Shown piece by piece: positions 3,989 through 58,054 of a stretch of DNA of 64,000 nucleotides. Position 1 is the stretch's first letter, and each line of letters starts with the position of its first letter. The DNA is from Fidelibacterota bacterium (GTDB lineage Bacteria; Fidelibacterota; Marinisomatia; Marinisomatales; Marinisomataceae): contig JABHGE010000023.1 of NCBI GenBank assembly GCA_018672235.1, positions 915 to 64,914 of the forward strand, written 5' to 3'. The translations under genes and the position numbers were made by a program. The notes below the pieces were generated by a model, which searched no databases, had not been told where the DNA came from, and saw nothing but the letters and a program-made list of their open reading frames with translations.

Positions 3989-4061
3989 GCGAGTGTAGCT
4001 CAGCTGGTAGAGCACAACCTTGCCAAGGTTGGGGTCGCGCGTTCGAATCGCGTCACTCGCT
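3989..4061 (+). tRNA. tRNA-Gly (anticodon GCC)
   Basis: Cloverleaf: acceptor GCGAGTG/CACTCGC, D arm GCTC/GAGC, anticodon arm CAACC-TTGCCAA-GGTTG, T loop TTCGAAT; CCA not encoded. Confidence 0.97.
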
Positions 4062-4549
4062 CAATTCTTAATCCAATTTAAAAAACTATCTATTATTCTC
4101 TTGTGAACAATCATTGAGCTAGTCTTTAGACGCTGTTCTCTTGTTTCGAAATACCAATCTAATATGTTACTATCTATGTGTTTCATCATAATACCAGATC
4201 CATATCTTTTAACAATAATTTCTTGAAACTTGGATAAGTGGTAGTTTTGAAGCTTCATAGAGCTTGTTTTAGGAGGTTTTGTTGTAAAATGTATCATCTT
4301 ATGCTTTAAGTAGGTTTTAATAGCACTATTTAGCTGCATTTCTTGTTTACCACCTTTTTTAATAGCAAAAACACGATCAAGTTCTTTTTTTTGCTTTAAG
4401 CAGTCATCCCAGGTTAGGGTAGGGCCAATTTTGCCTAAAGTTATATTAAAATATCTTTTTTTATTTTTTAAGGGATCGTATGCATAAATCGAATACATTA
4501 CATATCCGTCATTTTTTCCATTTCTTTTTCGTTTATAAATACTACTCAT
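4061..4549 (-). mobile_element. Tyrosine-integrase N-terminal part only (arm-binding-like plus core-binding/SAM-like domains), no catalytic domain
   Basis: MSSIYKRKRNG start; helical region LNSAIKTYLKHK...HIDSNILDWYF...SMIVHKRIIDSFLNWI resembles the integrase core-binding domain. No R-H-R-H-Y catalytic residues. The stop codon touches the tRNA-Gly 3' end. Confidence 0.6.
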
Positions 4550-6457: not shown

Positions 6458-6793
6458 ATGTCTGAAAAAATTATCAAAATAACAGATCAAAACTTTGAAG
6501 AGCTTGTAATTAAAGCAGAAAAGCTTGTAATTGTAGACTTTTGGGCTGAATGGTGCGGTCCATGTAAAGCTATAGCACCCATTTTAGATAAAATTTCTGA
6601 TGAATTTAGCGATAACGTCCTTATAGGTAAGGTAAATGTCGATGAAGTCAAAGAAGTGCCGGTAAAATACGGTATTCGCAGCATTCCAACATTATTGTTT
6701 TTTAGCAATGGAGAAATTGTAAGACAAGAGGTTGGACTTCAGTCTGAGAAGGCATTAGTTGATAATATTAACCAAATCATAAAGAAAAGTTAA
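6458..6793 (+). CDS. trxA: Thioredoxin
   Basis: DFWAEWCGPCK, IRSIPTLL. Confidence 0.97.
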   Translation: MSEKIIKITDQNFEELVIKAEKLVIVDFWAEWCGPCKAIAPILDKISDEFSDNVLIGKVNVDEVKEVPVKYGIRSIPTLLFFSNGEIVRQEVGLQSEKALVDNINQIIKKS

Positions 6794-6812
6794 TATTAAA
6801 CAATTAATTTAA

Positions 6813-7748
6813 GTGACAGATAAAACTATTCATAAAACTATCATTATCGGTTCTGGTCCAGCTGGATTAACAGCTGCGATTTATGCTGCTCGTGCTAATT
6901 TGAATCCAATTGTATTTGAAGGGAATCAACCCGGAGGTCAATTGACAATTACTACAGATGTAGAAAATTATCCAGGATTTCCTGACGGTGTTTTAGGTCC
7001 AGACATGATGGATCTATTTCGAAAGCAAGCTCAGAGATTTGGAGCCGAGTGTTTTTATAAATATGTCTCAAAAGTTGATTTTTCCAGCTCCCCATTCAAA
7101 GTTTATGTTCAAGATGAAGAGTATCTTGCTGAGTCAGTAATTATTTCTACTGGCGCATCTGCAAGAATGCTAGGTCTTGAAGCAGAAAAAGAGTTAATGG
7201 GGTATGGAGTCAGTACTTGTGCGACATGTGATGGTTATTTTTTCAAAGATAAAGAAATTGTAGTGGTTGGTGGCGGTGACTCAGCGATGGAAGAAGCAAG
7301 TTTTTTAACAAAATTTGCTAGTAAGGTAACACTTATCCATCGACGAGATGAATTTCGTGCATCTAAAATTATGATTGATAGGGTATTAGATAATCCAAAA
7401 ATTGAGATCATTAAAAATGCAGTAGTAGCTGACATTTTTGGTTCTCAAAAAGATGGAGTTTCTGGTATTTTATTAAAAGATACTATTGACGGAAATGAAA
7501 GAAATTTTGATTGCGAAGGTGTATTCTATGGTATTGGCCATAAGCCAAATACTGATCAATTTAAAGGTATAATTGATTTAGACGACCAAGGATATATCAC
7601 TACCAATCCCGGATCAACCTTAACTAATGTAGCAGGAATTTTTGCTTGTGGTGATGTGCAAGATAGTCATTATAGGCAAGCAATTACAGCAGCTGGTTCT
7701 GGTTGTATGGCAGCAATAGATGCGGAGAAATATTTAGAAGATTTATAG
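6813..7748 (+). CDS. trxB: Thioredoxin-disulfide reductase
   Basis: GSGPAG, CATCDG, GGGDSA, GDVQD..YRQAITAAG; GTG start. Confidence 0.97.
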   Translation: MTDKTIHKTIIIGSGPAGLTAAIYAARANLNPIVFEGNQPGGQLTITTDVENYPGFPDGVLGPDMMDLFRKQAQRFGAECFYKYVSKVDFSSSPFKVYVQDEEYLAESVIISTGASARMLGLEAEKELMGYGVSTCATCDGYFFKDKEIVVVGGGDSAMEEASFLTKFASKVTLIHRRDEFRASKIMIDRVLDNPKIEIIKNAVVADIFGSQKDGVSGILLKDTIDGNERNFDCEGVFYGIGHKPNTDQFKGIIDLDDQGYITTNPGSTLTNVAGIFACGDVQDSHYRQAITAAGSGCMAAIDAEKYLEDL

Positions 7749-7782
7749 AATAGCTTCTCTGTCTTTTTAAGGAGAAAAAAAG

Positions 7783-8499
7783 ATGGAATTAAAACAGATT
7801 TATGATATTAGCGGTCTAAAGCTCAAATTTGGATCAAAAAAGGCTTTAGAGATAAACACCTTAAAGTTTCACAATGGATTAATTTATGGTGTATGCGGTA
7901 ATTTTGGATCAGGAAAATCATCTCTAATGAAAGTCCTTTCAGGACTACAAAAAGAATCAAAAGGAGATGTTCTTTATCAAGGAAGTCCTTTCAAAACTAG
8001 CTTCTTTGGAAATATCAAAAAGCATAAAGAAATTCAATACATTCACGTAGACATGTTCAATGACTTTTCCAGCTATTTAAAGAGAAATTCTACAGTTGAG
8101 CAATTTTTAAAAGGAATGTTTTCTGCTAAGATAAACCAAATTCGTACACGGCATTTTAAGCATTTTAGCCTAGAGCATCTTTGGAAAACACCTATAAATA
8201 AGTTATCCGACGGTGAAAAACATTGGTTAAAAATTGTTGTAGGGGTAGAAAAAGATCCTAGAGTGTTAATCGTAGATGACTATGGTCTTCATCTAGATCC
8301 TAAGAATGAGATGATTTTGCGCAAAAAAATAATGAAGATGAACAATATTTTAGGAACTACTATTATTTTATCTTCAACGAGTGATTATTTTGTGAAACAA
8401 TTTGCAAATGTGGTCATATATTTAGATAACGGACATGTATCGAAAGTCAGAAAAGGATATAAGCGTAATAGCTTCAACAAGCATAAAAGCAAAAAATAA
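7783..8499 (+). CDS. ABC-type ATP-binding domain protein, degenerate motifs
   Basis: Walker A GNFGSGKSS; signature LSDGE; Walker B LIVDD; no H-loop His. Confidence 0.7.
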   Translation: MELKQIYDISGLKLKFGSKKALEINTLKFHNGLIYGVCGNFGSGKSSLMKVLSGLQKESKGDVLYQGSPFKTSFFGNIKKHKEIQYIHVDMFNDFSSYLKRNSTVEQFLKGMFSAKINQIRTRHFKHFSLEHLWKTPINKLSDGEKHWLKIVVGVEKDPRVLIVDDYGLHLDPKNEMILRKKIMKMNNILGTTIILSSTSDYFVKQFANVVIYLDNGHVSKVRKGYKRNSFNKHKSKK

Positions 8500-10135
8500 T
8501 AACATTCTCAACCTGTTATTCTTCATGTTATTGATTGGGCCATTATTAGGCCAAGTTGATAATAGGTTTAATGTTTTTAGTTGGGAGCAATATAGTCAGG
8601 TAGGTGGAGTTAATTCCATATCAGAAGATTATTCATATTTTTACTTTGGCACAGAGAATGCAGGAATTTTAAGACTAAATAAATTCTCCCAACAATTTGT
8701 AAAGCCAATTACTCAAGCCCAAGGAATAAAGTCTCAATCAATCGAACATATTTATTTTGACGAATATACAGGGCTTTTATGGTCTGTAGGGGATAGCTTT
8801 ATTGAGTATAGTTTTTCTAGAGAGGGTAATTGGAATAAAATAGATTATAACTTGCTTTCACTGAAATCCGGTAACCAGATTATTGACATTGGAGCTAGTA
8901 AAAATTATATATGGCTACGATCAAATAGTAAATTTTTCAAATTAGACCATATTAATGGTGTTTTGGTTGGAGTGTATACTATGCCAGATGAGCAATCTAT
9001 TTCATGGGGAGATATCTCTTCTCAGGAATTAAAGTGGAATATTTTTGATTTCAATGATTATTTTGTTGAGGATGCGTGGCTATTAACATCGAATGGAGCT
9101 TCAGATAACAGAGGAAATTTTTCAAAATATTTGTCTTATTATAAGTCAGATAATGGCATTAATTGGATGTCACTTTCTAACGGATATATTTTAAAAATAG
9201 ATGAATTTAATAAATTGATAACACCCATATTCTATGGCCTTGCATGTGCAGTTCCAACATCCATGATTGATAATGAAATGTTATGGATCTCAGGTATTGG
9301 AAATAAATCATTCAATGGTATTACTAAATTTGACATAAATAATAATAATTTTGAAAATATACTATCTGACCATCATTTAAATTTTAGTAAAGATAATATT
9401 TATTCAAGTCTTATGGTTGGTGATGAGATCTGGTTTGGATTAGATAGTCAGGTTTTAGTTTACAATGTAAGAAAAAACTCATTTAGATCTATCGGTTTTG
9501 ACAAAGGTGTTCCCCGTGGTAAGATTCTTCACTTAGGGCATAAAAATGGATCAATATTTGCTGGATCTATTAATGGGGTTGTTGAAATAAATATAAGCTC
9601 CAAAGCAAGATTAGACAGCAAGATAGAGAAGTTTATTTTCTCTAGAAATTTGGCTTTGCAAGATGTAGAGAATTTTGAAGATAAAGTTTTTTTTGTTTTA
9701 AGTAATTCCATTTTCAGTTACGATTATGAAAAAGATAATATTTCTGCTTTGAATTGGAAAGATATCACCTTTGACAGTTCTATGAAAAGAAATCAAATTG
9801 ATATAGCCTCTAGATCAGTATCTAGGATTTTTTCTAGAAATGATAATTTGTATATAGTTACAGATTTAGGCGTTGTAGATTACATGAATCGTGCTTTAGT
9901 TATACCTTCAAGTCTTTATTTTAATTACAAAATAACAGATATTGCTGTAGTAGATAATTCTTTATTATTTCTCTCTACAGTAAGAGGTTTGGCTATTATT
10001 GATATAGAGACAAAAGAGCTTATTAATTATTATGATTTTCCATTTTTAAGAAATATTTATCAAATAAAACATATTGATGAATATTTAGTGTTACTAACGA
10101 GCAAAGGTTTAATTAAATTTAATTTCAACTTATGA
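8435..10135 (+). CDS. Exported beta-propeller-like hypothetical protein (true start may be near ATG 8525)
   Basis: Signal-like LLFFMLLIGPLLGQ; repeated short beta-strand units with W/F-G-T/S motifs (YFYFGTENAGI, IWFGLD, IFAGSING, LFLSTVRGL). Confidence 0.5.
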   Translation: MYRKSEKDISVIASTSIKAKNNNILNLLFFMLLIGPLLGQVDNRFNVFSWEQYSQVGGVNSISEDYSYFYFGTENAGILRLNKFSQQFVKPITQAQGIKSQSIEHIYFDEYTGLLWSVGDSFIEYSFSREGNWNKIDYNLLSLKSGNQIIDIGASKNYIWLRSNSKFFKLDHINGVLVGVYTMPDEQSISWGDISSQELKWNIFDFNDYFVEDAWLLTSNGASDNRGNFSKYLSYYKSDNGINWMSLSNGYILKIDEFNKLITPIFYGLACAVPTSMIDNEMLWISGIGNKSFNGITKFDINNNNFENILSDHHLNFSKDNIYSSLMVGDEIWFGLDSQVLVYNVRKNSFRSIGFDKGVPRGKILHLGHKNGSIFAGSINGVVEINISSKARLDSKIEKFIFSRNLALQDVENFEDKVFFVLSNSIFSYDYEKDNISALNWKDITFDSSMKRNQIDIASRSVSRIFSRNDNLYIVTDLGVVDYMNRALVIPSSLYFNYKITDIAVVDNSLLFLSTVRGLAIIDIETKELINYYDFPFLRNIYQIKHIDEYLVLLTSKGLIKFNFNL

Positions 10136-11355
10136 AAAATTTTATATCCATTTATGTAATATTGTTGAGCATAATATCTGCTCAAGGGTTAGATCGAAAT
10201 ATAGATCAGTTTAAAACTAATTCGTTCGTTCGTCCAGTTACAAGCGACTCTGTAGAGGTTTTATCTTTTATGGAAGTATCAAATAGCGCCTTACAATTTC
10301 TGAAGAAAGACAATCTTTTTGAGGCTAAATATGAAGTAAATATTGCTATACTAGATCAAGATAAGGAGAAGAGATTTTCTCAGCTATTTTCAGATACGAT
10401 TGTTGTTCAAAAATTTGGTGATACTACATCGAAGGTAAAGAAAAAGATAATAACAACAACAGCTGTTTTGCCATTTGCTAGTTATACGGTAACATCAACT
10501 TTAAAAGATCTAGATATAAAGCTCTCAGGAAAGAGGGATGAAGAAATCGATTTGAAAGATTTGTCAAAAAACACATATTTTAAAATATATGATCCAATAT
10601 TTGTAAGAAAAGCAGAAGGTCTGTGGGGGTTTGGTACAAATAAATTTCCTATTCCGGCTAGCAGAGTGATCCCCGATAGTAATAATATTTCTTTCTATCA
10701 ATATGTTGTTTTAAATCCAGGTTCATATAATATCACAATAAGTGTTGTTGGGGATAAAAAAATACAATGGGAAGATTCTATCGACGGTATTTCAGAAGGT
10801 GCTGTAGTAAGTTATCTAGCGAATATACCTATCAAAGATATTGATAAAAGAGATTTAAAAATTAAGGTAGTAGTGAGTCAAAGTGGCAACGTTTCATCGA
10901 AATCATTTCCATTCAAAATAAAGAATACTACATTTTTTGACGAAATTGACAATATCGATGTTGCGTTAGCTCAAATGAGTTATATTTTAACATCAGAAGA
11001 AAAGAAAGAGTTGAAAAATCTCAAACAATCAGAAAAAGAAATTTTCTTTAAAAAAGTTTGGGCAAAAAGAGATCCTGTCGTTCAAACAAAGGTTAATGAA
11101 CTTATGCAAGAGTACTATACTAGAGTTGCTTTTGCGGAAGAAAATTTTTCAAGAGGGACTTCCGGTGGATGGAAGTCAGATATGGGAATGGTTTATATTT
11201 TATTTGGAAAGCCCGATGACATGGCACGTTCAATGAATATGCAGGGTAGTTATAGTTATGAAACATGGTACTATTTCCAAATTGGAGAAGAATTTACTTT
11301 TATTGATGAATATGGATTCGGAGATTATAGGCTGAAAACGCCATTGCTATATTAA
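10132..11355 (+). CDS. GWxTD domain-containing exported protein
   Basis: Signal peptide; C-terminal FFKKVWAKRDP...NELMQEYYTRV..A...F...GWKSDMGMVYILFGKPD...ETWYY. Confidence 0.85.
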   Translation: MKNFISIYVILLSIISAQGLDRNIDQFKTNSFVRPVTSDSVEVLSFMEVSNSALQFLKKDNLFEAKYEVNIAILDQDKEKRFSQLFSDTIVVQKFGDTTSKVKKKIITTTAVLPFASYTVTSTLKDLDIKLSGKRDEEIDLKDLSKNTYFKIYDPIFVRKAEGLWGFGTNKFPIPASRVIPDSNNISFYQYVVLNPGSYNITISVVGDKKIQWEDSIDGISEGAVVSYLANIPIKDIDKRDLKIKVVVSQSGNVSSKSFPFKIKNTTFFDEIDNIDVALAQMSYILTSEEKKELKNLKQSEKEIFFKKVWAKRDPVVQTKVNELMQEYYTRVAFAEENFSRGTSGGWKSDMGMVYILFGKPDDMARSMNMQGSYSYETWYYFQIGEEFTFIDEYGFGDYRLKTPLLY

Positions 11356-11360
11356 ATATT

Positions 11361-11885
11361 ATGAAGAACGAAGAAAAATTAATTAAAATTTTAGAAAGAT
11401 TTAGAGATAAGTTATCTTCTAAGGAGATTGCTTTGATAGATAGGTTAGTTGAAGTGCCAAAAACTATAAAAGACTCATGGGATAGTAGCGATACATCTTA
11501 CAAGCTTTTTACAGATGGAGCATCACAGCTCGATAAGAACAATGCTGGTATTGGAGGTTTGTTAAAAAGTGGCCAAGATATAGTGTTTTCTTTTGCTGAA
11601 AATATAGGCGATTGTACTAATAATGAAGCGGAATATTTAGCGCTAATCAGAGGGATTGAACTCTGTATTGAAAACAAAATACTAGATGTAAATTTTTTTT
11701 GTGATAGTGAGTTGATTGTAAGGCAGGTCAATGGTGATTATAAAGTAAAAAATGAAAGAATGATTAAGCTTCATGCTAGAACCTTGGATTTGTGTTCAAT
11801 GCTAAACAACTGGTCAGTTTCACATGTTCTTAGAGATAAAAATACAGAAGCAGATCTTTTGAGTAAAGAAGGCCTTACTAAATAA
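11361..11885 (+). CDS. rnhA: Ribonuclease HI family protein
   Basis: FTDGAS, TNNEAEYLAL, DSELIVRQVNGDYKVK, HVLRDKNTEAD. Confidence 0.9.
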   Translation: MKNEEKLIKILERFRDKLSSKEIALIDRLVEVPKTIKDSWDSSDTSYKLFTDGASQLDKNNAGIGGLLKSGQDIVFSFAENIGDCTNNEAEYLALIRGIELCIENKILDVNFFCDSELIVRQVNGDYKVKNERMIKLHARTLDLCSMLNNWSVSHVLRDKNTEADLLSKEGLTK

Positions 11886-11928
11886 AAAAAACTAAGGAAT
11901 GAGAATAATATTTTATAAGTTATAGACT

Positions 11929-12969
11929 ATGAATTTCTTCAATAAAATTAAAGACACCTTTAGCGATAGTTTCAACTGGGTTAGCGGCGATATTGCTATT
12001 GACCTTGGAACAGCTAATACTTTGATATGGTTAGCTGGTAAGGGAATTATTGTCAATGAGCCATCTATCATTGCTAGATCTACAAAAACAGGAGCAGTTA
12101 TTGCTGTTGGTGAAGATGCTAAGCAGATGTTAGGTAAGACTCATGAAGGTATCGAAACTATTCGTCCATTGCGAGATGGAGTAATTGCTGACTATACGGC
12201 TGTAGATGAAATGTTACAGGGTTTTATCAGAAAAGTAAATTTAAATCGCCTGACTAGACCAAGAATGGTTATTTGCGTGCCATCCGGTGTTACTGAGGTA
12301 GAAAGAAGAGCTGTAAAAGATTCTGGAGAAAAGCAGGCAGCTAGAGAGGTATTTTTAGTAGACGAACCTGTTGCTGCAGCAATCGGAATAGGTTTAGATA
12401 TTAGTAAGCCTGTAGGTAATATTATTGTTGATATCGGTGGAGGAACTACTGAAGTAGCTGTGATATCGTTAAACGGCGTCGTCACTAAAAAAGCTATTAG
12501 AGTTGCTGGAGATGAAATGGATGACGCAATACAGCATTGGTTTAGAAATGAACATAAGTTAGAGATCGGAGCACAGACAGCAGAGCAGATAAAAATTACA
12601 GTCGGTTCCGCTATGAGGGCAAGATCTAAGAATATTTTAGTCAAAGGAAGAGATTTAGTATCGGGGATACCTAAAACAATAGATATTAGATCGGATGAAA
12701 TTAGACAAGCATTGAAAGATCCGGTAAAAAGAATTTTAGATGTAATTAAGGATGCGTTAGAAGCAACACCAGCCGAACTATCTTCAGATATTATAGATAG
12801 AGGAATTATTCTTGCTGGAGGAGGTTCTCAATTGAGAGGTCTTGACCAAGTCTTGCGTGAAAAAACAGGCGTACCTGTCAATGTTGCCGATGAACCACAT
12901 TTAGCAATTGTTAAAGGATGTGGGGCAGTAATAGAAGATTTAGAAAAATTTAAGCATGTCCTTCTTTAA
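11929..12969 (+). CDS. mreB: Rod shape-determining protein MreB
   Basis: IAIDLGTANT, VDIGGGTTEVAVISL, LAGGGSQL. Confidence 0.97.
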   Translation: MNFFNKIKDTFSDSFNWVSGDIAIDLGTANTLIWLAGKGIIVNEPSIIARSTKTGAVIAVGEDAKQMLGKTHEGIETIRPLRDGVIADYTAVDEMLQGFIRKVNLNRLTRPRMVICVPSGVTEVERRAVKDSGEKQAAREVFLVDEPVAAAIGIGLDISKPVGNIIVDIGGGTTEVAVISLNGVVTKKAIRVAGDEMDDAIQHWFRNEHKLEIGAQTAEQIKITVGSAMRARSKNILVKGRDLVSGIPKTIDIRSDEIRQALKDPVKRILDVIKDALEATPAELSSDIIDRGIILAGGGSQLRGLDQVLREKTGVPVNVADEPHLAIVKGCGAVIEDLEKFKHVLL

Positions 12970-38750: not shown

Positions 38751-38837
38751 GGAGAGGTGGCTGAGTGGTTGAAAGCGGCACCCTGCTAAGGTGTTATACG
38801 GGAAACTGTATCGAGGGTTCGAATCCCTCTCTCTCCG
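38751..38837 (+). tRNA. tRNA-Ser (anticodon GCT)
   Basis: Acceptor GGAGAGG/TCTCTCC, anticodon loop CTGCTAA, long variable arm TATACGGGAAACTGTATC, T arm GAGGG-TTCGAAT-CCCTC. Confidence 0.96.
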
Positions 38838-38873
38838 CTATTATTCATTGGTTAAAGCGTTAAAAGAAAGAGA

Positions 38874-49444: not shown

Positions 49445-50092
49445 ATGAGCGCTTTAAAGTCAAGATTAGCTATAGGATTAACAGGATTTCCTCTTATTAT
49501 TCTAGCGGTATTGAATGGAGGATGGATCTTCAATTCTATCATAGTTTTAGCTGCATTAATTGCATTCAAAGAGTTTCTATCACTTCAATCAAAGAATGAC
49601 AAAAAAATACTATGGATATTATTTGGCATAATTTATGTTTTGGGGAGTATTTTTTGTCTCTTAGTCTTAAGAGATATTGATTTATTATTGGGTTCGTATT
49701 TCACATTGATGCTATTTGCGGGAGTATCAGTAAATGATTCTTTTTCTTATATTTTTGGTAAATGGATTGGTGGTAAAAAAATTGCACCATCAATTAGTCC
49801 AAATAAAACATATGCGGGTCTAATTGGAGGACTTGTAAGTACCATATTATTTGTACTCTTATTTGATGAGTTTATATTCAATCTAACATTTTTAGATAAA
49901 TGGGTATTTATCATCATTATAAATATTGTTGGATTTTTTGGCGATATCTTTGAATCATCTTTGAAGCGTAGGGTAAAAATTAAAGATTCTTCTCGTCTAT
50001 TAATGGGTCATGGAGGGATGTTAGATAGGTTAGACTCTTTAATATTGACAACTCCAGTAACATTGTTTTATGTTATTGCGTATTATTTATGA
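49445..50092 (+). CDS. cdsA: Phosphatidate cytidylyltransferase
   Basis: DSFSYIFG, ISPNKTYAG, GDIFESSLKR..KIKDS..L.GHGGMLDRLDS. Confidence 0.95.
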   Translation: MSALKSRLAIGLTGFPLIILAVLNGGWIFNSIIVLAALIAFKEFLSLQSKNDKKILWILFGIIYVLGSIFCLLVLRDIDLLLGSYFTLMLFAGVSVNDSFSYIFGKWIGGKKIAPSISPNKTYAGLIGGLVSTILFVLLFDEFIFNLTFLDKWVFIIIINIVGFFGDIFESSLKRRVKIKDSSRLLMGHGGMLDRLDSLILTTPVTLFYVIAYYL

Positions 50093-51915
50093 GTAAAAAA
50101 ATTAAATCCATATTGGCAACAGATTGTGGAAGTACAACCACCAAAGCTATTCTAATTGAATGGAAAGAAGACCGTTATAGGTTGACTTTTAGAGGTGAAG
50201 CCCCAACAACAGTTGAAGCTCCTTTTGAAGATGTTACTAAAGGAGTATTGAATGCTGTAATGGAAGTAGAAGAACTATCTGGAAGAACTATTCTAGATGG
50301 AGATCAAATTATAACACCAGAGAATGGAAAGTCGGGAGTAGATATTTATGTTTCTACAAGCTCTGCTGGCGGTGGATTACAAATGATGGTAGCTGGTGTA
50401 GTAAAATCTATGTCGGGAGAAAGCGCAGAAAGAGCTGCTTTGGGGGCAGGATCGATTGTAATGGACGTTTTAGCGTCAAATGACGGTAGGTTACCGCATG
50501 AAAAAATTACACGCATAAGACAGCTAAGACCTGATATGATATTGTTATCGGGTGGAACTGACGGTGGAACTACTACGCACGTAATGGAATTAGCTGAAAT
50601 TCTAGCAGCTGCAAATCCACGACCTCGTTTAGGTCAAAATTATAAATTGCCAGTGATTTATGCTGGAAATAACAAAGCTCAAGAATCTATTAAATCCACG
50701 CTTGGTGAAATTTCAGATCTAGATATTGTTGATAATATTAGACCGGTGCTTGAGAGAGAAAATTTAGAACCTTCACGTGATAAAATTCATGATCTATTTA
50801 TGGAGCACGTTATGGCGCAGGCGCCTGGATATAAGAAGCTGATGTCTTGGACTGATGCTCCTATTATGCCGACACCTGGAGCAGTAGGTTCATTGATTGA
50901 AATGATTGCGAAAAAAGAAGGTATCTCTGTTGTAGGAGTAGATATCGGCGGCGCAACAACAGATATTTTTTCTGTATTTGAAGAAAAATTTAATCGTACA
51001 GTAAGTGCTAATCTTGGAATGAGCTATTCTATTTGTAACGTATTAGCTGAGGCAGGACTAGATAACGTATTAAGATGGGTTCCTTTTGATATTGATCGTA
51101 GTGAGCTAACAAACCGTATTGGTAATAAGATGATACGTCCAACGACAGTACCGCAATCATTAGAAGAATTAGTCATTGAGCAAGCAATTGCTAGAGAAGC
51201 TTTGAGATTATCTTTTATTCAACATAAAGCATTTGCTACTAGCCTTAAAGGGGTTCAGTCAGAACGTACTATATCTGATGCATTTGAGCAATCTTCTAGC
51301 GGTCAATCTCTAGTAAATATGATGGATTTAGATTTATTGGTAGGCTCAGGTGGTGTATTGTCACATGCTCCACGTCGCCAACAATCTGCCAGAATGCTGA
51401 TCGATGCTTTCATGCCTGAAGGTATTACACAGCTAGCAGTAGATTCTATTTTTATGATGCCTCAATTGGGTGTGCTTGCAAATATTGATAAAGAGGAATT
51501 AAAAGATGATGCAAGTCAGGCAGCATTAGAGGTGTTTGATAATGATTGCCTAATTAGACTTGGAACATGTGTTAGTCCGGTTGGAAAAGCAAAGCCAAAG
51601 TCTAAAATGGCTGATGTAACAATGTCATTTAAGGATGGATCAACAAAGACAATAGAAATCAAAGAAGGTTCTCTTGAGATGCTTGAATTTCCTTACGAAG
51701 AAGTGAAGGTTCATATAGAACCATCAAGAGGGATAGATGTTGGTGCCGGAAAAGGAGAGCCGCTTGATTCTGTTATATATGGAGGCGTAGTTGGGTTAAT
51801 CTTTGATGGGCGTAACAGACCAATCACATTATCGACTGATCCATCCCAAAGAATTGATAGTTTATTAAATTGGTCTAGCGCAGTAGATGAATATCCTAAA
51901 GGAGATTTATTTTAA
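50089..51915 (+). CDS. GlmL/MutL (glutamate mutase L)-like actin-fold (ASKHA) ATPase
   Basis: Phosphate-1 ATDCGSTTTK, STSSAGGGL, phosphate-2 GVDIGGATTD, RTVSANLGMSYS, adenosine-loop GSGGVLSHAP. Confidence 0.8.
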   Translation: MSKKIKSILATDCGSTTTKAILIEWKEDRYRLTFRGEAPTTVEAPFEDVTKGVLNAVMEVEELSGRTILDGDQIITPENGKSGVDIYVSTSSAGGGLQMMVAGVVKSMSGESAERAALGAGSIVMDVLASNDGRLPHEKITRIRQLRPDMILLSGGTDGGTTTHVMELAEILAAANPRPRLGQNYKLPVIYAGNNKAQESIKSTLGEISDLDIVDNIRPVLERENLEPSRDKIHDLFMEHVMAQAPGYKKLMSWTDAPIMPTPGAVGSLIEMIAKKEGISVVGVDIGGATTDIFSVFEEKFNRTVSANLGMSYSICNVLAEAGLDNVLRWVPFDIDRSELTNRIGNKMIRPTTVPQSLEELVIEQAIAREALRLSFIQHKAFATSLKGVQSERTISDAFEQSSSGQSLVNMMDLDLLVGSGGVLSHAPRRQQSARMLIDAFMPEGITQLAVDSIFMMPQLGVLANIDKEELKDDASQAALEVFDNDCLIRLGTCVSPVGKAKPKSKMADVTMSFKDGSTKTIEIKEGSLEMLEFPYEEVKVHIEPSRGIDVGAGKGEPLDSVIYGGVVGLIFDGRNRPITLSTDPSQRIDSLLNWSSAVDEYPKGDLF

Positions 51916-53040
51916 ATGGCACATTCTTATACTCCGGGATTAAAAGTATTAAAAAAGACACTTTTTAGAAAAGAACGTATTCTACCTCTAAAAGGTAAAG
52001 TTCTTGTAAAAAAAGGCGATAAGTTGTCTCCGGATACTGTCGTTGCTTCTACCAATCTTCCTGGCAATGTGCAGATGTTAAAAGTAAATAACATCTTAAA
52101 TATTGAACCTAGAGACGTAGTTGATTGTTTAGTAGTTAAAGAAGGCGATATCGTAAAAAAAGGTGATATGATCGCTGAAACAGCAGGAATTTTTGGTATG
52201 TTTAAATCTTCTGTGGACTGTCCTGTAGATGGAACAATTGAGTCTATATCTGAAAGCACAGGACGTGTTATAGTGAGAGAAGTTCCTATACCAGTAGAAG
52301 TAGATGCTTATGTAAGCGGTACGGTAGACGAAGTAATTGAAAAAGAAGGAATTATTTTAAAGTGTGATGCAGCATTTATCCAAGGCATTTTCGGAATTGC
52401 AGGCGAAAAAAGAGGAGAGTTAGTATTGGTATCTAGTAATTCTTCTGACGAGTTAACATCTGATCAAATTACAGAAGAGATGGCAGGAAAAATTTTAATA
52501 GGCGGATCATTTTTAAATCTTGATGCTTATAAAAAAGCAATGAGTTGTAATGTTGCTGCGGTGGTAGTAGGTGGGTTTAATTACTATGACCTAAAAGCAG
52601 TATTGGGATATGATTTAGGGGTAGCTATTACAGGTACAGAACAACTACCTACAGCATTGATTGTGACAGAAGGATATGGATCTATTCCAATGAGTGATGC
52701 TACGTTTGATTTATTAAAAAGTAATCATGGAAATGAAGCATCTGTCAATGGTGCAACGCAAATAAGAGCAGGTGTAATTCGTCCTGAGATCGTAATCCCT
52801 ATGTTGACTGAGTCTGAGTCAGAAGACTCTTTATCTAAAGAGCCAGAAGGTATTCAAGAAGGTAGTACAGTTAGAGTGATTCGTTCACCAAATTTTGGAA
52901 AGATTGGAACAGTAAGTTCTTTGCCATCAGAATTAAAGAAGATGGAGTCAGAGACTATGGTTAGAGTAGCTGAAGTTTCTATCGATGGAGTAGATACTCT
53001 TATACCGAGAGCAAATCTTGAAATGGTCGAATTGCAGTGA
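51916..53040 (+). CDS. Conserved hypothetical soluble protein with barrel-sandwich-hybrid motifs and C-terminal KOW/SH3-like region
   Basis: VLVKKGD, VVKEGDIVKKGDMIA...CPVDGTI, AYVSGTV; NGATQIRAGVIRPE; EGSTVRVIRSPNFGKIGTV. Confidence 0.6.
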   Translation: MAHSYTPGLKVLKKTLFRKERILPLKGKVLVKKGDKLSPDTVVASTNLPGNVQMLKVNNILNIEPRDVVDCLVVKEGDIVKKGDMIAETAGIFGMFKSSVDCPVDGTIESISESTGRVIVREVPIPVEVDAYVSGTVDEVIEKEGIILKCDAAFIQGIFGIAGEKRGELVLVSSNSSDELTSDQITEEMAGKILIGGSFLNLDAYKKAMSCNVAAVVVGGFNYYDLKAVLGYDLGVAITGTEQLPTALIVTEGYGSIPMSDATFDLLKSNHGNEASVNGATQIRAGVIRPEIVIPMLTESESEDSLSKEPEGIQEGSTVRVIRSPNFGKIGTVSSLPSELKKMESETMVRVAEVSIDGVDTLIPRANLEMVELQ

Positions 53041-53309
53041 GTTACATACTAACTAGCGAGGATAAAACATTTTTATCAAAGCTTGCTAATAAGATAGTAG
53101 AGCTAAAATTAATTACTCCTTCGATTTTTTTCTTAGAAATGGTAAAGCCATTAAATTTTATCGGAAGTCAGACAATGGTATTTTTTGGGCCAATAATTAG
53201 TGCATTTGTCAAAACAGATGGTTATTATAGGGCTGCTGAATTATTTGAACAGCACTCTAGTGTAGAATTTTTAATTTGTGAATTAGAACGATTAGGCAAA
53301 AATGGATAA
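53037..53309 (+). CDS. Small hypothetical protein of the GlmL-like operon
   Basis: 90 aa, overlaps both neighbours; TPSIFFLEMVKPLNFIGSQ. Confidence 0.7.
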   Translation: MSYILTSEDKTFLSKLANKIVELKLITPSIFFLEMVKPLNFIGSQTMVFFGPIISAFVKTDGYYRAAELFEQHSSVEFLICELERLGKNG

Positions 53310-54180
53310 CAAGCAAATACAAACATACTCTTTAGGATTTATAGGTATAACCCTATTTACCTTTGCTTTGACACAACTTCCAGAGTCTATTCACATCTTC
53401 CAATCAGATAGAGCAGTAATGTTTGCTCTTTTACTTACTATTATAATGGTAATGTTAAATGAAGTAAAACAAGCTAGAATTTCTTCTGATTCAATCTTTT
53501 TACGTACTATTCCAGGACTAAAAGCAGTAGAAGAAGCTGTCGGTCGTTCTACTGAGATGGGTCGACCTATTCTTTATGTTCCAGGTATTATGGATATGAA
53601 TGAGGTTGAAACTGTTGCTGGTGTAATTATTTTAGGTCACGTAGCTCAGATGACTGCACAATACGAAACAAGTTTAGATGTTCCTGTTGCAAGATCTATT
53701 GTTATGCAAGCTGCTAGAGAGTCTTGCAAGGAAGCCTATTTAACACAAGGACGCCCAGAAATGTTTAATGAGGATATGGTTCATTATATTACGGATGATC
53801 AATTTGCTTATGCCGCAGGAGTAAATGGGATAATGCAAAGAGATAAGCCAGCTGCATGTATGTATATGGGTAAATTTTATGCAGAATCATTACTTTTCGC
53901 AGAGACTGGTAATAGTATTGGTGCAATTCAGATTGCAGGTACTGCATCTCAAGCGCAAATTCCTTTCTTTGTAACTGCTTGCGACTATACATTAATGGGT
54001 GAAGAGTATTTTGCAGCAAGTGCATATCTTTCAAGAAAACCTGAATTAATTGCGGGTGTAAAAACACAAGATATGGTCAAACTTATGCTGATTAGTTTTA
54101 TTGGGGTTGCTTTATTGTCACGCGCCTTATCTGATTTAGGATTAACGAGTTTTAACCTTTTAACATTGTTGGGTCTATAA
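53302..54180 (+). CDS. DUF6754-like membrane-anchored protein
   Basis: Two N-terminal TMs, LRTIPGLKAVEEAVGRSTEMGRP, AESLLFAE, QIPFFVTACDYTLMGEEYFAASAYLS, C-terminal TM (family name from recall). Confidence 0.65.
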   Translation: MDNKQIQTYSLGFIGITLFTFALTQLPESIHIFQSDRAVMFALLLTIIMVMLNEVKQARISSDSIFLRTIPGLKAVEEAVGRSTEMGRPILYVPGIMDMNEVETVAGVIILGHVAQMTAQYETSLDVPVARSIVMQAARESCKEAYLTQGRPEMFNEDMVHYITDDQFAYAAGVNGIMQRDKPAACMYMGKFYAESLLFAETGNSIGAIQIAGTASQAQIPFFVTACDYTLMGEEYFAASAYLSRKPELIAGVKTQDMVKLMLISFIGVALLSRALSDLGLTSFNLLTLLGL

Positions 54181-54181
54181 A

Positions 54182-55084
54182 ATGTTTTTAAAAAGATATA
54201 TACCAATTGGAATTGTTGCATTTTTTGGATCTTTAACTCTATTTGGATGGTTTATTGATAATGAATCAATTGAGGCGTTTGTAAATGACGATGCGACTCA
54301 ATGGTATGATATTATTGCAAGTTTTGCGATTTTTCTCGGAGCATTAAATTTATTAAAATTACAATTTTTAAAAGTAATAAAGAAACAGCAGGGATGGCAG
54401 TATAGTGTTGTTGCGATTGTATCGTTCTTTTTTGCTTTTACAATCGGCTTCTTTATGAAGGGAGCTTTCTTTGTAGGTGAAGATGTATACTTTACACAAA
54501 AGGCAGCCGAACAAGCTATTGCAGTGTCAGGGTCCTCAGAGGTTATGATACCAGTTGAATGGGGAGCTCATATTTCTGCAGAGGGCGGTTTATTTAAATG
54601 GATGTTTGATAGTATTTTTACCCCTTTATCTGCAACCATGTTTGCATTGCTCGCGTTTTACGTTGCTTCAGCTTCATATCGCGCATTTAGAGTAAGAAAT
54701 TTTGAAGCTACATTATTATTATTAGCTGGTATTATTATCATGTTAGGTAGAGTACCTGTAGGAAGTTTAATTACGCCTTGGATGGTAATGTATCTACTAG
54801 TATTTGTTGGAGCAATATTTATGAGTACTTATTTTAGAGATCGTAAGATTATTTTCGGTTCATTTGTCCTAGGTTTGTTAGGTGTCACATTGCTAGGTAT
54901 AAACATGGATTGGAATCCAACCCAACCTGCAATATTTTTCTTACCATCACTACAGGAATGGATTTATACAGTTCCAAATTTAGCTGGAGCAAGAGCGATT
55001 ATGATTGGGATTGGTTTGGGAATTATTGTAACTAGTCTACGTTATATATTTGGATTAGAAAAATCATACATAGGTGACCAATAA
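54182..55084 (+). CDS. Polytopic membrane protein of unknown function
   Basis: About 8 hydrophobic helices; PLSATMFALLAFYVASASYRAFR; AGARAIMIGIGLG. Confidence 0.75.
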   Translation: MFLKRYIPIGIVAFFGSLTLFGWFIDNESIEAFVNDDATQWYDIIASFAIFLGALNLLKLQFLKVIKKQQGWQYSVVAIVSFFFAFTIGFFMKGAFFVGEDVYFTQKAAEQAIAVSGSSEVMIPVEWGAHISAEGGLFKWMFDSIFTPLSATMFALLAFYVASASYRAFRVRNFEATLLLLAGIIIMLGRVPVGSLITPWMVMYLLVFVGAIFMSTYFRDRKIIFGSFVLGLLGVTLLGINMDWNPTQPAIFFLPSLQEWIYTVPNLAGARAIMIGIGLGIIVTSLRYIFGLEKSYIGDQ

Positions 55085-55926
55085 TGAAATTTTTAGAAGA
55101 CATGATATTGAAGTTTGGTTCTGTTGATAGAAGATTTATCTTTCTATTAATTGGTCTAGCAGTATTTATACCGCTTTTACGCCCAATAGATTTACCGATT
55201 AGAACGACCCCAACTACTGAAAAAGTTTATAATGCAATCGATGCAATTCCTGCAAATTCAAAGGTATTGATGTCGTTTGATTACGGTCCAAGTACTAAGC
55301 CTGAGATTCATCCAATGACATTGGGAGTTATGAGACAGCTTTTACGCAAAGATCATCAAATTTATATTACTTGTTTATGGCCTGATGGGCTATATATGGC
55401 CCTTGATGCATTAGACGAAATCAATAAGGAATTTGATCTAGTAGAGTATGAAGATTATGTACTATTAGGCTTTAGACCAGGAAATGAAGCAATTGTTAAA
55501 GGTCTTGCTAGTGATTTACGTAAAGTTTATACCGTAGACGCTAAAGGTGTAATGCTTGCAGATATACCTATGATGGATGGCGTAAATAATTTAAAAGATT
55601 TTCAATTTATTTTTACTGGTTCTGCTGGATATCCAGGTACTTTTGAATGGGTTCAATATGGCGGAGATCCAACCGGTGTACCATTATCTTCTGGAACAAC
55701 ATCGATTCAAGTAAATGAAGTGATGCCTTATGTTCAGAGTGGACAAGTAAGAGGAATTCTTGCTGGAATGCCAGGAGCAGCAGAGTATGAAAAATTGATT
55801 GGTACGCCAGGTATTGCAATTCAAGGAATGGCTGCACAATCATTTGCACATTTGGTTATTGTATTGTTTATTGTTTTAGGTAATCTAGCATATTTTATAA
55901 CAGAGAGAAGAGAGAGGAAATATTAA
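55084..55926 (+). CDS. Membrane-anchored protein of unknown function, probable DUF6754 paralog
   Basis: N-terminal TM, alpha/beta soluble domain (FDYGPS..PE, LAGMPGAAEYE), C-terminal TM. Confidence 0.7.
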   Translation: MKFLEDMILKFGSVDRRFIFLLIGLAVFIPLLRPIDLPIRTTPTTEKVYNAIDAIPANSKVLMSFDYGPSTKPEIHPMTLGVMRQLLRKDHQIYITCLWPDGLYMALDALDEINKEFDLVEYEDYVLLGFRPGNEAIVKGLASDLRKVYTVDAKGVMLADIPMMDGVNNLKDFQFIFTGSAGYPGTFEWVQYGGDPTGVPLSSGTTSIQVNEVMPYVQSGQVRGILAGMPGAAEYEKLIGTPGIAIQGMAAQSFAHLVIVLFIVLGNLAYFITERRERKY

Positions 55927-55927
55927 T

Positions 55928-56701
55928 ATGGCATTTTCTACTATTCTCGGTGCATGGATTGCAGCATTTTTAACATTAGGTATCTTATCTTATCTCTATA
56001 GAGATAATCCTTTCTATAAGATTGCAGAACATGTTTTTGTTGGTGTTTCAGCAGCTTATTGGGCAGCTACCTTTTATTGGACACAAATTTATCCAAATCT
56101 TTTTGGAAGATTATTCCCGAAAGACGGCCCTTTGGCATTTATCGCTGAAGTTGATTTTAATCACGAATTTAATGTGTTTTACTTATTTCCTTTATTGCTA
56201 GGTATTATGATGTTGCTTAGTATTTTTAAGCAGTTTAATTGGATGGCAAGATGGGGTATTGCTTACACAGTAGGTATTGCAGCTGGATTGAAAGCATATG
56301 GTTATTTAAGCTCTAATGTATTGAGTCAAATTAGTGCAAGTGCTGTAGATATATTTAGCGGTTCTTTGCCAATCTTTAGTATGTCAGGAGATAGCGTATT
56401 TAACAATATTGTTATCTTGATCGGTACAATTAGTGCATTGATGTATTTTTATTTCTCAAAAGAACAGACTGGTTCTTATGGAAAATTTACTCGATTAGGA
56501 ATTTATTTCTTAATGATCAGTTTTGGAGCATCATTTGGTTTTGCGGTTATGGGACGTATTTCACTATTAATTGGTCGTTTTAACGATCTAATTTTATTTT
56601 CTTCCTCCGATTATAACTATGGAACGTTTTGGATGATGTTATTTGTTGTAGTCGTACTAGGTTTTTGGTCATTCCAAAATCCTGAAAAAAAGGAAGGTTA
56701 A
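55928..56701 (+). CDS. Polytopic membrane protein of unknown function
   Basis: About 7 hydrophobic helices; SYLYRDNPFYKIAEH..VGVSA; MISFGASFG...MGR. Confidence 0.75.
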   Translation: MAFSTILGAWIAAFLTLGILSYLYRDNPFYKIAEHVFVGVSAAYWAATFYWTQIYPNLFGRLFPKDGPLAFIAEVDFNHEFNVFYLFPLLLGIMMLLSIFKQFNWMARWGIAYTVGIAAGLKAYGYLSSNVLSQISASAVDIFSGSLPIFSMSGDSVFNNIVILIGTISALMYFYFSKEQTGSYGKFTRLGIYFLMISFGASFGFAVMGRISLLIGRFNDLILFSSSDYNYGTFWMMLFVVVVLGFWSFQNPEKKEG

Positions 56702-56704
56702 TAA

Positions 56705-58054
56705 ATGAATAAAGCGGATATTAGGAAAGTAATTTCTCAAAGTATTCTTGCAGATGGAATGTCTCCAATTATCGACTTAGAAAAATCTCATGGATCTTGG
56801 TTAGTTGATAAGGTTAGTGGTAAAGAATATTTAGATTTATTCTCTATGTTTGCATCTCTTTCTGTCGGATATAACCATCCTTATGTCTTAGAGCAATCAG
56901 AACGATTACGTATTGCAGCAATCAATAAACCAACAAATTCAGATGTTTATTCTCAAGAGATGGCAGAATTTATGCAAACCTTCAAACGTGTAGCTCAGCC
57001 AGATTATTTACCTCATACTTTTTTTATAGAGGGTGGCGGTCTAGCAGTTGAAAATGCTTTAAAAGTTGCATTTGACTGGAAGCGTAGAAAAAATTTAGCT
57101 AAAGGAAGTAGCGCTAAAGGAGAAAAGGTTATTCATTTTAAGCAATGTTTTCATGGACGAACAGGGTACACTATGTCCCTAACTGATTCTCCAGACAAAA
57201 GAAAAACAATGTATTTTCCAAAATTTGACTGGCCTAGAGTTAGTAATCCTAAAATTACATTCCCTTTAAAAGATAATTTAGAGCATGTTCAAGCATTGGA
57301 GAAGCAGTCATTGCATGAAATCAAAGAAGCAATTGCTGCAAATCCAGATAATATTTCTTCTATTATCTTAGAGCCTATACAGGGCGAAGGTGGAGACAAT
57401 CACTTCAGATGCGAGTTTATGCAAGCATTAAGAGAAATTGCTAATGAGAACGATATTATGCTTATCTACGATGAAGTACAAACTGGAATTGGTGTGACAG
57501 GAAAAATGTGGGCACACCAACATTTCTCATCAGGTGCTTGTGAGTCTGATTGTCATTGTCCAGATGGATTATCAGCTAAGCCTGATATTATTGCATTTGG
57601 TAAGAAAACGCAGGTTTGTGGTATTGCTGTTAGCACTCGCGTAGATGAAGTAGAAGGTAACGTGTTTCAAGAATCAAGTCGTATTAACTCTACGTGGGGT
57701 GGAAGTTTAGTTGATATGGTGCGACTAACTATCTATTTAGAACTAATTGAAAGAGATAATTTAGTAGATCAGGCAGCTAAAAATGGACAATACCTTTTAA
57801 ATAGCATTGAAGGACTTCAAAATAAATACCCTGGCCTTGTATCGAATGCAAGAGGAAAAGGGCTGTATTGTGCCTTTGATTTGCCTTCAAGCAATCAAAG
57901 AGATAAGTTGTCAGAGCTTCTCATGGATGAAGGTTCAATTTTGCTAGGCTCTGGAAATTATTCAATACGCTTTAGACCGCATTTAAATGTGACAACCGAA
58001 GATATTGATTTTGGAATAGATTGCTTTACGCGCGCATTAAATAAGTTGGCATAA
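56705..58054 (+). CDS. lat: L-lysine 6-transaminase (class III aminotransferase)
   Basis: YLDLFSMFAS, KPTNSDVY, GGLAVENALKVAFDWK, FHGRTGYTMSLT, EPIQGEGGD, DEVQTG, FGKKTQVCG, SRINSTWGG. Confidence 0.9.
   Translation: MNKADIRKVISQSILADGMSPIIDLEKSHGSWLVDKVSGKEYLDLFSMFASLSVGYNHPYVLEQSERLRIAAINKPTNSDVYSQEMAEFMQTFKRVAQPDYLPHTFFIEGGGLAVENALKVAFDWKRRKNLAKGSSAKGEKVIHFKQCFHGRTGYTMSLTDSPDKRKTMYFPKFDWPRVSNPKITFPLKDNLEHVQALEKQSLHEIKEAIAANPDNISSIILEPIQGEGGDNHFRCEFMQALREIANENDIMLIYDEVQTGIGVTGKMWAHQHFSSGACESDCHCPDGLSAKPDIIAFGKKTQVCGIAVSTRVDEVEGNVFQESSRINSTWGGSLVDMVRLTIYLELIERDNLVDQAAKNGQYLLNSIEGLQNKYPGLVSNARGKGLYCAFDLPSSNQRDKLSELLMDEGSILLGSGNYSIRFRPHLNVTTEDIDFGIDCFTRALNKLA

Follow-up and report, generated by a model that had tools for sequence, protein, structure and literature searches.

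The window analysed here, a stretch of 64,000 nucleotides from a Fidelibacterota bacterium (assembly GCA_018672235.1, contig JABHGE010000023.1, positions 915 to 64,914), contains seven consecutive genes, open reading frames ORF1 to ORF7, which are conserved in a dozen or more diderm bacterial phyla. They form a real unit of two modules: E (ORF1-3), which includes a GlmL/MutL-type ATPase, and M (ORF4-7), which includes a protein of the family DUF6754. The system is real, widespread and undescribed in the literature searched, in which we found no paper on DUF6754, PF20539, PF13941 or GlmL-like proteins in this context. Our tentative interpretation is an inner-membrane machine of a type not described before and made of two modules, in which a cytoplasmic ATPase module would drive or service an exchangeable, four-subunit membrane module with parts in the periplasm.

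Conservation and synteny across phyla

A search of the GTDB species set with the DUF6754 profile yielded at least 595 matching stretches, of which 80 loci were fetched and their six-frame ORFs searched with the window proteins. Loci were obtained from Marinimicrobia, Zixibacteria, WOR-3, Eisenbacteria, Fermentibacteria, Aegiribacteria, Stahlbacteria, Ignavibacteriales, Planctomycetaceae, Phycisphaerae, Lentisphaeria, Riflebacteria and 'Deltaproteobacteria', and later matches added Latescibacteria, Calditrichaeota and Acidobacteriota. Orthologues of each of ORF1 to ORF7 were found in other phyla, which identifies all seven as real genes. They co-occur in Zixibacteria, Planctomycetes/Phycisphaerae, Fermentibacteria, Riflebacteria, Lentisphaeria, Ignavibacteriales and others.

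ORF4-5-6-7 form an invariant, collinear block on the same strand in 71-78 of 81 loci. ORF1 and ORF2, usually accompanied by ORF3, stand beside this block in about 41 loci (about half). At least four arrangements occur, with these genes placed upstream or downstream of the block, divergent from it or interrupted by unrelated genes. Marinimicrobia have the gene order 1-2-3-4, Planctomycetes and Fermentibacteria the order 3-1-2-4, while ORF1-2 are located downstream of ORF7 in Riflebacteria and are divergent in some Zixibacteria. Since the association of E with M was kept through several rearrangements, it has been maintained rather than passively inherited. All-against-all clustering of the neighbours in the 80 loci revealed no mutase and no further gene that recurs widely, and the neighbours in other phyla (acyl-CoA dehydrogenases, HNH proteins, a toxin-antitoxin pair, an M4 peptidase) include no consistent metabolic partner. 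The seven genes stay together across phyla while their other neighbours change and are thus considered a unit. The first-pass annotation of the window, made from its sequence alone, had proposed a seven-gene operon; the association stands, being conserved across phyla, whereas the indivisible unit gives way to two evolutionary modules.

The ORF listing agrees exactly with that annotation in the seven consecutive plus-strand ORFs, their sizes and the intergenic gaps from ORF1 to ORF7 of 0, -4, -8, +1, -1 and +1 nt. The gaps had been taken to indicate translational coupling, but they are not distinctive, as neighbouring genes show the same packing. CdsA overlaps ORF1 by 4 nt, the class III aminotransferase starts 3 nt past ORF7, and the entire 45-61 kb stretch lies on the plus strand, with overlapping gene ends and packed as tightly as ORF1-7. 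Because the neighbouring genes are equally packed, tight spacing cannot delimit an operon, and a promoter/terminator scan around the cluster found no signal marking a boundary. Such packing on one strand would also be expected if there were no system at all, merely unrelated genes in a streamlined genome. This explanation is refuted by the synteny, with seven genes co-retained across phyla amid changing neighbours.

Tandem copies of the membrane module

The ORF4-7 block often occurs in two to three tandem copies with a single ORF1/ORF2 pair alongside, and many Zixibacteria-like genomes have three tandem M modules after one such pair (Table 1). The three types of M, designated A, B and C, are ancient, their mutual divergence being equal to their divergence from the Marinimicrobia copy. 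In at least seven loci the four subunits of a module all fall into one and the same type, which indicates duplication en bloc followed by co-evolution. Judged from the sequences, such co-variation of four subunits is the signature of a physical complex, the putative M complex. Identity between paralogues is 55-65% for the cytoplasmic DUF6754 part of ORF4, 36-42% for the periplasmic ORF6 and 34-46% for the ORF4 N-terminus. This conservation gradient fits a shared cytoplasmic partner combined with diversified periplasmic specificity. The order of the copies is A-C-B-like in some Zixibacteria (L043, L045, L062).

Table 1 Features of the seven-gene system in the window and in loci (L) of other genomes; aa, amino acids; P, protein
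Feature	Position	Strand	Size	Description
ORF1	50089..51915	+	608 aa	cytoplasmic GlmL/MutL-type ASKHA (actin-fold) ATPase
ORF2	51916..53040	+	374 aa	soluble, mostly beta, multidomain partner of ORF1
ORF3	53037..53309	+	90 aa, GTG start	small, conserved hydrophobic hairpin, probably membrane-associated
ORF4	53302..54180	+	292 aa	DUF6754 protein, anchored by transmembrane segments
ORF5	54182..55084	+	300 aa	polytopic membrane subunit
ORF6	55084..55926	+	280 aa	bitopic membrane subunit
ORF7	55928..56701	+	257 aa	polytopic membrane subunit
Tandem ORF4-7 triplicates (A-B-C)	L039, L054, L057, L058, L060, L061 (whole loci); L083:6458-17809			
Examples of DUF6754 extensions	L048:7703-10774			fn3 repeats in P0127, P0129; propeller in P0212, P0194, P0141
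Protein upstream of ORF3 homologue	L062:5082-5537, L068:5774-6193, L055:5682-6155, L081:3106-3543, L024:8613-9116, L029:8722-9168, L031:8728-9168, L051:5477-6202, L065:158-742		~150 aa	
ExbBD-TonB loci	L050:12868-17996, L059:12859-17980, L078:12303-13459, L066:10114-11258, L068:13313-18317, L055:13150-18072, L054:858-1574, L075:2428-3144			

The ATPase and its partner proteins

ORF1 matches PF13941 (MutL) over residues 8-470 with an E-value of 1.9e-124 and 416 bits (cut-off 27). It scores below the NCBIfam equivalog cut-offs for GlmL (NF040745, 220 vs 475 bits) and Or-4 (NF040744, 209 vs 600 bits) as well as below the subfamily cut-off of TIGR01319 (156 vs 204 bits). The nucleotide-binding motifs DCGSTTTKA, SSAGGGLQM, SGGTDGG, DIGGATTDIFS and GSGGVLSHAP are all invariant in 33 orthologues, and judged by them the GlmL-type ASKHA ATPase ORF1 is catalytically intact. 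Its cross-phylum identity is 59-77%. A conserved, subfamily-specific C-terminal domain of about 140 amino acids (approximately residues 470-608) extends beyond the Pfam MutL and NCBIfam GlmL models. It contains a cysteine pair, C487/C494, in the motif DCLxxLGTC (window positions 51547-51570), which is invariant in 16 of 16 aligned orthologues. By analogy with dimeric ASKHA activators, these cysteines might form a site for a metal or a bridging Fe-S cluster, or else be a structural feature.

No mutase subunits were found near ORF1 homologues in three Pfam-annotated contexts, and no such family recurs in the 80 loci. The flanks of the cluster in the window (CdsA, a DAGK-like kinase and the class III aminotransferase) also lack them, the hidden Markov model (HMM) scan of the window having covered the cluster and these flanks. 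Since ORF1 falls short of the GlmL equivalog score and lacks the genomic context that defines such proteins, it is not a glutamate-mutase accessory protein; its initial description as an orphan GlmL-like ATPase without a mutase is therefore borne out.

Owing to its actin fold, ORF1 might instead be part of a cytoskeletal or positioning system, polymerising like MreB, FtsA, PilM or MamK while anchored to the membrane and organising the envelope or division. This would be relevant to the FtsZ-less Planctomycetes, and the system is indeed found in Planctomycetes and Phycisphaerae. Its bitopic and polytopic partners also recall MreC/MreD or PilN/PilO. However, ORF1 belongs to the GlmL/MutL branch and gave no match to the Pfam/NCBIfam models of MreB, FtsA, PilM, ParM and MamK at E-values up to 0.1. 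Two to three tandem paralogous membrane modules are ill-suited to an essential single scaffold. Moreover, the system is also present in phyla outside Planctomycetes, and FtsZ and MreB are expected in many of these. We regard a cytoskeletal role as very improbable.

ORF2 adjoins ORF1 or sits very near it wherever one contig carries both, and shows a cross-phylum identity of 46-61% with about 75 invariant residues. Hydropathy analysis revealed no signal peptide, transmembrane segment or hydrophobic N-terminus, which indicates a cytoplasmic protein. Weak HMM matches to RnfC_N, NqrA_N (E-values of 1e-4 to 6e-3 for these two) and Biotin_lipoyl at residues 71-120 correspond to a barrel-sandwich hybrid, in agreement with its earlier description as a hybrid-motif protein, and a KOW match lies at residues 316-334. 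The AlphaFold2 model (predicted local distance difference test score, pLDDT, of 83.4) is mostly beta. It combines a barrel-sandwich hybrid with a beta-barrel, a small alpha/beta domain and a domain of KOW/SH3-like type. When the model was compared with the PDB using Foldseek, resemblance was restricted to the domain level, namely to KOW domains (NusG/Spt5), biotinyl carriers/BCCP and the adaptor BesA, with TM-scores of at most 0.18; NqrA/RnfC structures were absent from the matches listed. A role in biotin or lipoyl attachment was considered and rejected, since the candidate lysine is not conserved.

The RnfC_N and NqrA_N matches raise the question of a redox or ion pump akin to Na+-NQR or Rnf, in which ORF2 would be the peripheral subunit corresponding to NqrA/RnfC. 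These matches are weak and span only the hybrid motif of about 45 residues. ORF3-7 include no NqrB-F, RnfA/D/E/G, FMN_bind or Fe-S family and no cysteine clusters, so that this proposal is largely refuted.

In one locus, an MNT/HepT toxin-antitoxin pair is inserted between the ORF1 and ORF2 homologues (L083:4259-4878). In another, an M4 peptidase with a weak match to Por_Secre_tail, a type IX secretion signal, lies between ORF2 and the first ORF4 homologue (L082:11357-13873).

Orthologues of ORF3 were detected in 36-41 loci, either with ORF1-2 or immediately upstream of ORF4. They share the conserved core VPAIxFLExxKPLSFxGxQxLVFFGP, and E34 and P52 are invariant. Directly upstream of the ORF3 homologue, nine loci from outside Marinimicrobia encode a protein of about 150 amino acids with two transmembrane helices followed by a compact soluble domain (Table 1). 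It belongs to no Pfam family and has no match in the window at an E-value of 10 or below; it may be an eighth component.

The membrane subunits

The hydropathy profiles of ORF1-3 lack transmembrane segments, ORF4 and ORF6 have terminal ones and ORF5 and ORF7 are polytopic, which confirms the first-pass division into soluble, anchored and polytopic proteins. A motif scan of ORF1-7 found no CxxCH, CxxC, Walker A or LSGGQ, in line with the reported absence of CxxCH, ferredoxin-type cysteine clusters and ABC motifs. In Pfam and NCBIfam, ORF3, ORF5, ORF6 and ORF7 match no family, and member-by-member Pfam scans for the latter three gave noise. None of the seven proteins matched a PADLOC defence-system model, and sequence and profile searches of all PDB sequences with ORF1, 2, 4, 5, 6 and 7 returned chance-level matches only. 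The membrane proteins thus correspond to no complex that has been characterised, whether judged by Pfam, NCBIfam, PADLOC or the sequences and folds in the PDB.

ORF4 is a full-length member of DUF6754 (PF20539; E-value 5.4e-108, profile positions 4-244 of 257), a family of 2001 representative clusters at 50% identity. Its AlphaFold2 model (pLDDT 72.7) features helices at residues 4-24, 35-60 and 247-278 and a six-stranded alpha/beta domain at residues 71-244. The model thus assigns to ORF4 two N-terminal transmembrane helices, a Rossmann-like cytoplasmic domain and a C-terminal transmembrane helix. Foldseek against the PDB gave no significant fold match (best E-value 0.03), and no PDB sequence matched. 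The motifs AVGRATEMG, IQIAGT and PFFxxxCDYTLxGEE are invariant, as are the polar residues T84, E85, D98, E140, E195, E201, Q210, T214, C227, D228, E234, E235, D257 and K260. In other phyla, many DUF6754 proteins comprise 400-1000 amino acids and carry large N-terminal extensions of fn3 or PQQ/BamB-like beta-propeller type, from which it follows that this end of ORF4 is periplasmic and the DUF6754 domain cytoplasmic. The window ORF4 represents the minimal form without fn3 or propeller extension. In P0123, a C-terminal extension of about 250 amino acids and of no assigned type takes the place of the N-terminal one.

The many invariant polar residues on an alpha/beta fold could also point to a membrane-bound biosynthetic or modifying enzyme. 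The Rossmann-like domain of ORF4 would then be catalytic or bind a nucleotide or sugar, ORF1 would be a kinase or activator acting on a lipid or glycan intermediate, ORF5 and ORF7 would hold the substrate in its lipid-linked form or flip it, and ORF6 would complete the reaction in the periplasm. Pfam/NCBIfam scans revealed a weak local resemblance of ORF4 to eIF-2B/MtnA-type folds, the cluster follows CdsA and the DAGK-like lipid kinase in Marinimicrobia, and many ASKHA proteins are kinases. Yet the adjacency to lipid genes is limited to Marinimicrobia, the best Foldseek match of ORF4 does not amount to a significant enzyme fold, and Pfam scans detected no glycosyltransferase, flippase or polymerase family. 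An enzyme of this kind is in our view improbable.

ORF5 was found in 76 of 81 loci, always immediately 3' of ORF4; it has multiple hydrophobic segments and the conserved motif TMFALLAFFVASASYRAFR, and gave no Pfam or PDB match. The Marinimicrobia proteins have a lineage-specific insertion (window positions 54750-54920, approximately residues 190-245) that adds about two hydrophobic helices. A second insertion, a soluble loop of about 100 amino acids, was seen in some relatives (L007:10793-11821, L020:10795-11823, L025:10871-11908). Both are missing from the ORF5 proteins of other phyla, which are 207-230 amino acids long.

ORF6 follows ORF5 wherever it was found (73 of 81 loci) and has transmembrane segments at approximately residues 19-37 and 254-272. 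Since DRR precedes the first segment and RRERK follows the last, both termini are predicted to be cytoplasmic and the conserved domain of about 215 amino acids periplasmic. ORF7, with about five to six hydrophobic segments, follows ORF6 in every locus that has it (71 of 81), and its conserved motifs are FLYKDNPFYKFAEH, YFFFSKEHKG and FGASFGYTVMGRISLLIGR. Neither protein has a Pfam or PDB match. The possibility that ORF4/ORF6 and ORF5/ORF7 are paralogous pairs in a pseudo-symmetric complex was rejected (hhalign probability below 1%).

Proposed mechanism

M would be a four-subunit complex in the cytoplasmic membrane, with ORF5 and ORF7 as its polytopic transmembrane core. Between its transmembrane helices, ORF4 would place the conserved Rossmann-like domain in the cytoplasm, and ORF6 would place its conserved domain in the periplasm. 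E would be located at the cytoplasmic face, with ORF1 as the ATPase, ORF2 as a beta-rich adaptor and ORF3 as a small membrane-hairpin tether. Like ASKHA chaperones of the Hsp70 and reactivase types, ORF1 may close and open its two lobes upon ATP binding and hydrolysis. ORF2 and ORF3 would pass this motion on to ORF4 at its cytoplasmic domain, from where it would drive a conformational cycle of the ORF5/ORF7 bundle and thereby move or remodel a substrate handled periplasmically by ORF6. The fn3 and beta-propeller extensions of ORF4 in other phyla may also take part, and the periplasmic parts (ORF6 and the ORF4 extensions) would give specificity for substrates or partners. A single E module would serve all M modules in genomes that have two to three of them. 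With somewhat greater reserve than the two-module machine itself, we suggest that a GlmL-type actin-fold ATPase, and not a P-loop ATPase or an ion-driven stator, powers interchangeable inner-membrane modules acting on periplasmic or outer-envelope substrates.

An undescribed ATP-coupled membrane machine had already been suggested in the first-pass annotation. Our results support an undescribed membrane complex, and none of the three findings named there as refuting the proposal (no co-occurrence in other genomes, consistent association with mutase subunits, a match of the membrane proteins to a characterised complex) was obtained. Coupling to ATP, by comparison, is something we infer, along with the contact between E and M, the direction of transport and the substrate, and in about half of the loci with long flanks M stands without E. 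Of 35 loci flanked by 5 kb or more at either end, 16 have E next to M, while 17 have M without ORF1 or ORF2 within 5-10 kb, which is the main evidence against E as the engine of M. Most of the M-only loci are clean B-type copies, which may be extra modules in genomes with E elsewhere. Further points tell against the proposed machine. In the WOR-3 loci, ORF7 is followed not by E but by a DUF4388 protein, four small proteins and ExbB-ExbD-ExbD-TonB. Fusion proteins linking components were not found among 508 homologues, and the most conserved loop of ORF4 was modelled by AlphaFold2 at low confidence. To our knowledge, no ASKHA ATPase energises a bacterial transporter. The sole characterised relative, GlmL/MutL, is described as a chaperone that reactivates a soluble enzyme, glutamate mutase; a legend to this effect (PMC4682846) was the one relevant statement in the literature searched.

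These points lead to an explanation in which ORF4-7 are self-sufficient, either driven by an ion gradient or enzymatic, and ORF1-ORF2 serve as an ATP-dependent factor for assembly, repair or reactivation. This would mirror the way in which GlmL/MutL, DdrAB and EutA service enzymes, and reactivation of glutamate mutase is the only role described for the family (PMC4682846). The frequent lack of E within 5-10 kb of M and the occurrence of several M modules per single E pair are in line with such a maintenance role. On the other hand, the conservation of ORF1 (59-77% identity) and ORF2 (46-61%) exceeds that of any M subunit (33-61%), which is unusual for an accessory factor. Furthermore, no cofactor-dependent enzyme is recognisable in M. 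We consider this explanation unlikely, albeit slightly less so than the enzyme discussed above, and retain the two-module machine as a provisional working model.

Should the ATPase power the membrane module, bacterial membrane machines would be seen to be energised in a way not known before, and an unrecognised step in envelope biogenesis, transport or secretion would probably come to light as well. It would also provide a second, membrane-linked function for the GlmL/MutL family and the first function for DUF6754. Four of the seven proteins are outside Pfam, and two AlphaFold models (ORF2 and ORF4) are without PDB counterpart. The carriers belong to mostly uncultured lineages and include globally abundant ocean Marinimicrobia, Zixibacteria and Planctomycetes. 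With its clean division into one ATPase pair and one to three membrane sets that co-evolve, the system allows the question to be tested directly.

Genomic setting

In the window, which belongs to a marine Marinimicrobia (SAR406) genome, ORF1-7 are flanked by housekeeping genes, namely DHODH, an RlpA-like protein, the DAGK-like kinase, CdsA, the aminotransferase, RsmI and Tmk. Conservation of these flanking genes is confined to Marinimicrobia. The G + C content of positions 50001-58000 is 0.35-0.38, slightly higher than in most of the window (0.28-0.34), and the GC skew is positive over nearly all 64 kb. The only RNA genes detected with Rfam/ARAGORN were tRNA-Gly(GCC) at 3989-4062 and tRNA-Ser(GCT) at 38751-38838.

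In a metagenome-assembled genome of Marinimicrobia (L001, GCA_038281605.1, positions 6790-12640), each of the homologues of ORF1, ORF2, ORF6 and the aminotransferase is broken up into two gene calls, and that of ORF5 is shortened; the split genes are most likely assembly frameshifts rather than pseudogenes. Genes for ExbB-ExbD(-ExbD)-TonB were observed 0.5-5 kb from M in eight loci of about four lineages (Table 1). A TonB-dependent receptor lies between M and ExbBD-TonB in L068 and L055. This proximity may hint at a link to the outer membrane or be due to chance.

Comparison with known systems

GlmL/MutL is the accessory protein of the B12-dependent glutamate mutase, and Or-4 is a GlmL-related protein of ornithine degradation. 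ORF1 shares with both the Pfam family, the ASKHA fold (residues 8-470) and intact ATP-binding motifs. It differs from GlmL/MutL in its score far below the cut-off and in the additional C-terminal domain of about 140 amino acids with the invariant cysteine pair. In the loci examined it is never beside mutase subunits, always paired with ORF2 and usually found with a membrane module. ASKHA reactivases and chaperones (DdrA/PduG, EutA) provide a working analogy, in that the ATP cycle of an actin-fold ATPase remodels a partner. In Hsp70 motors on translocons (mtHsp70-Tim44-TIM23, BiP-Sec63) the remodelled partner is a membrane channel. However, these families show no sequence or profile match to ORF1, and their partners are unrelated.

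The N-terminal part of ORF2 has the hybrid fold of adaptor domains such as the NqrA/RnfC N-termini, biotinyl/lipoyl carriers and periplasmic membrane fusion proteins like BesA. In contrast to these, ORF2 is cytoplasmic, its modification lysine is not conserved and the full architecture with alpha/beta and KOW-like domains is without PDB counterpart. ORF2 also fails as a tripartite efflux adaptor, with 15 bits against the RND_mfp cut-off of 95 and a partial fold match to BesA (TM-score 0.10). For Na+-NQR/Rnf, only the hybrid motif of ORF2 matches, and weakly; membrane-subunit families and cysteine clusters are missing, as are Nqr/Rnf structures among the fold matches listed. ORF1-7 likewise lack the Walker A and LSGGQ motifs and the ABC and permease families of an ABC transporter. 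ORF4 is a full-length representative of DUF6754 (PF20539), a family without assigned function.

Group II ECF transporters and TonB-ExbB-ExbD resemble the system in their logic. Although ORF1-7 have no ABC, EcfT, MotA/ExbB or ExbD homology and ExbBD-TonB are separate neighbours in some loci, in each case one energiser gene set stands beside several alternative membrane modules.

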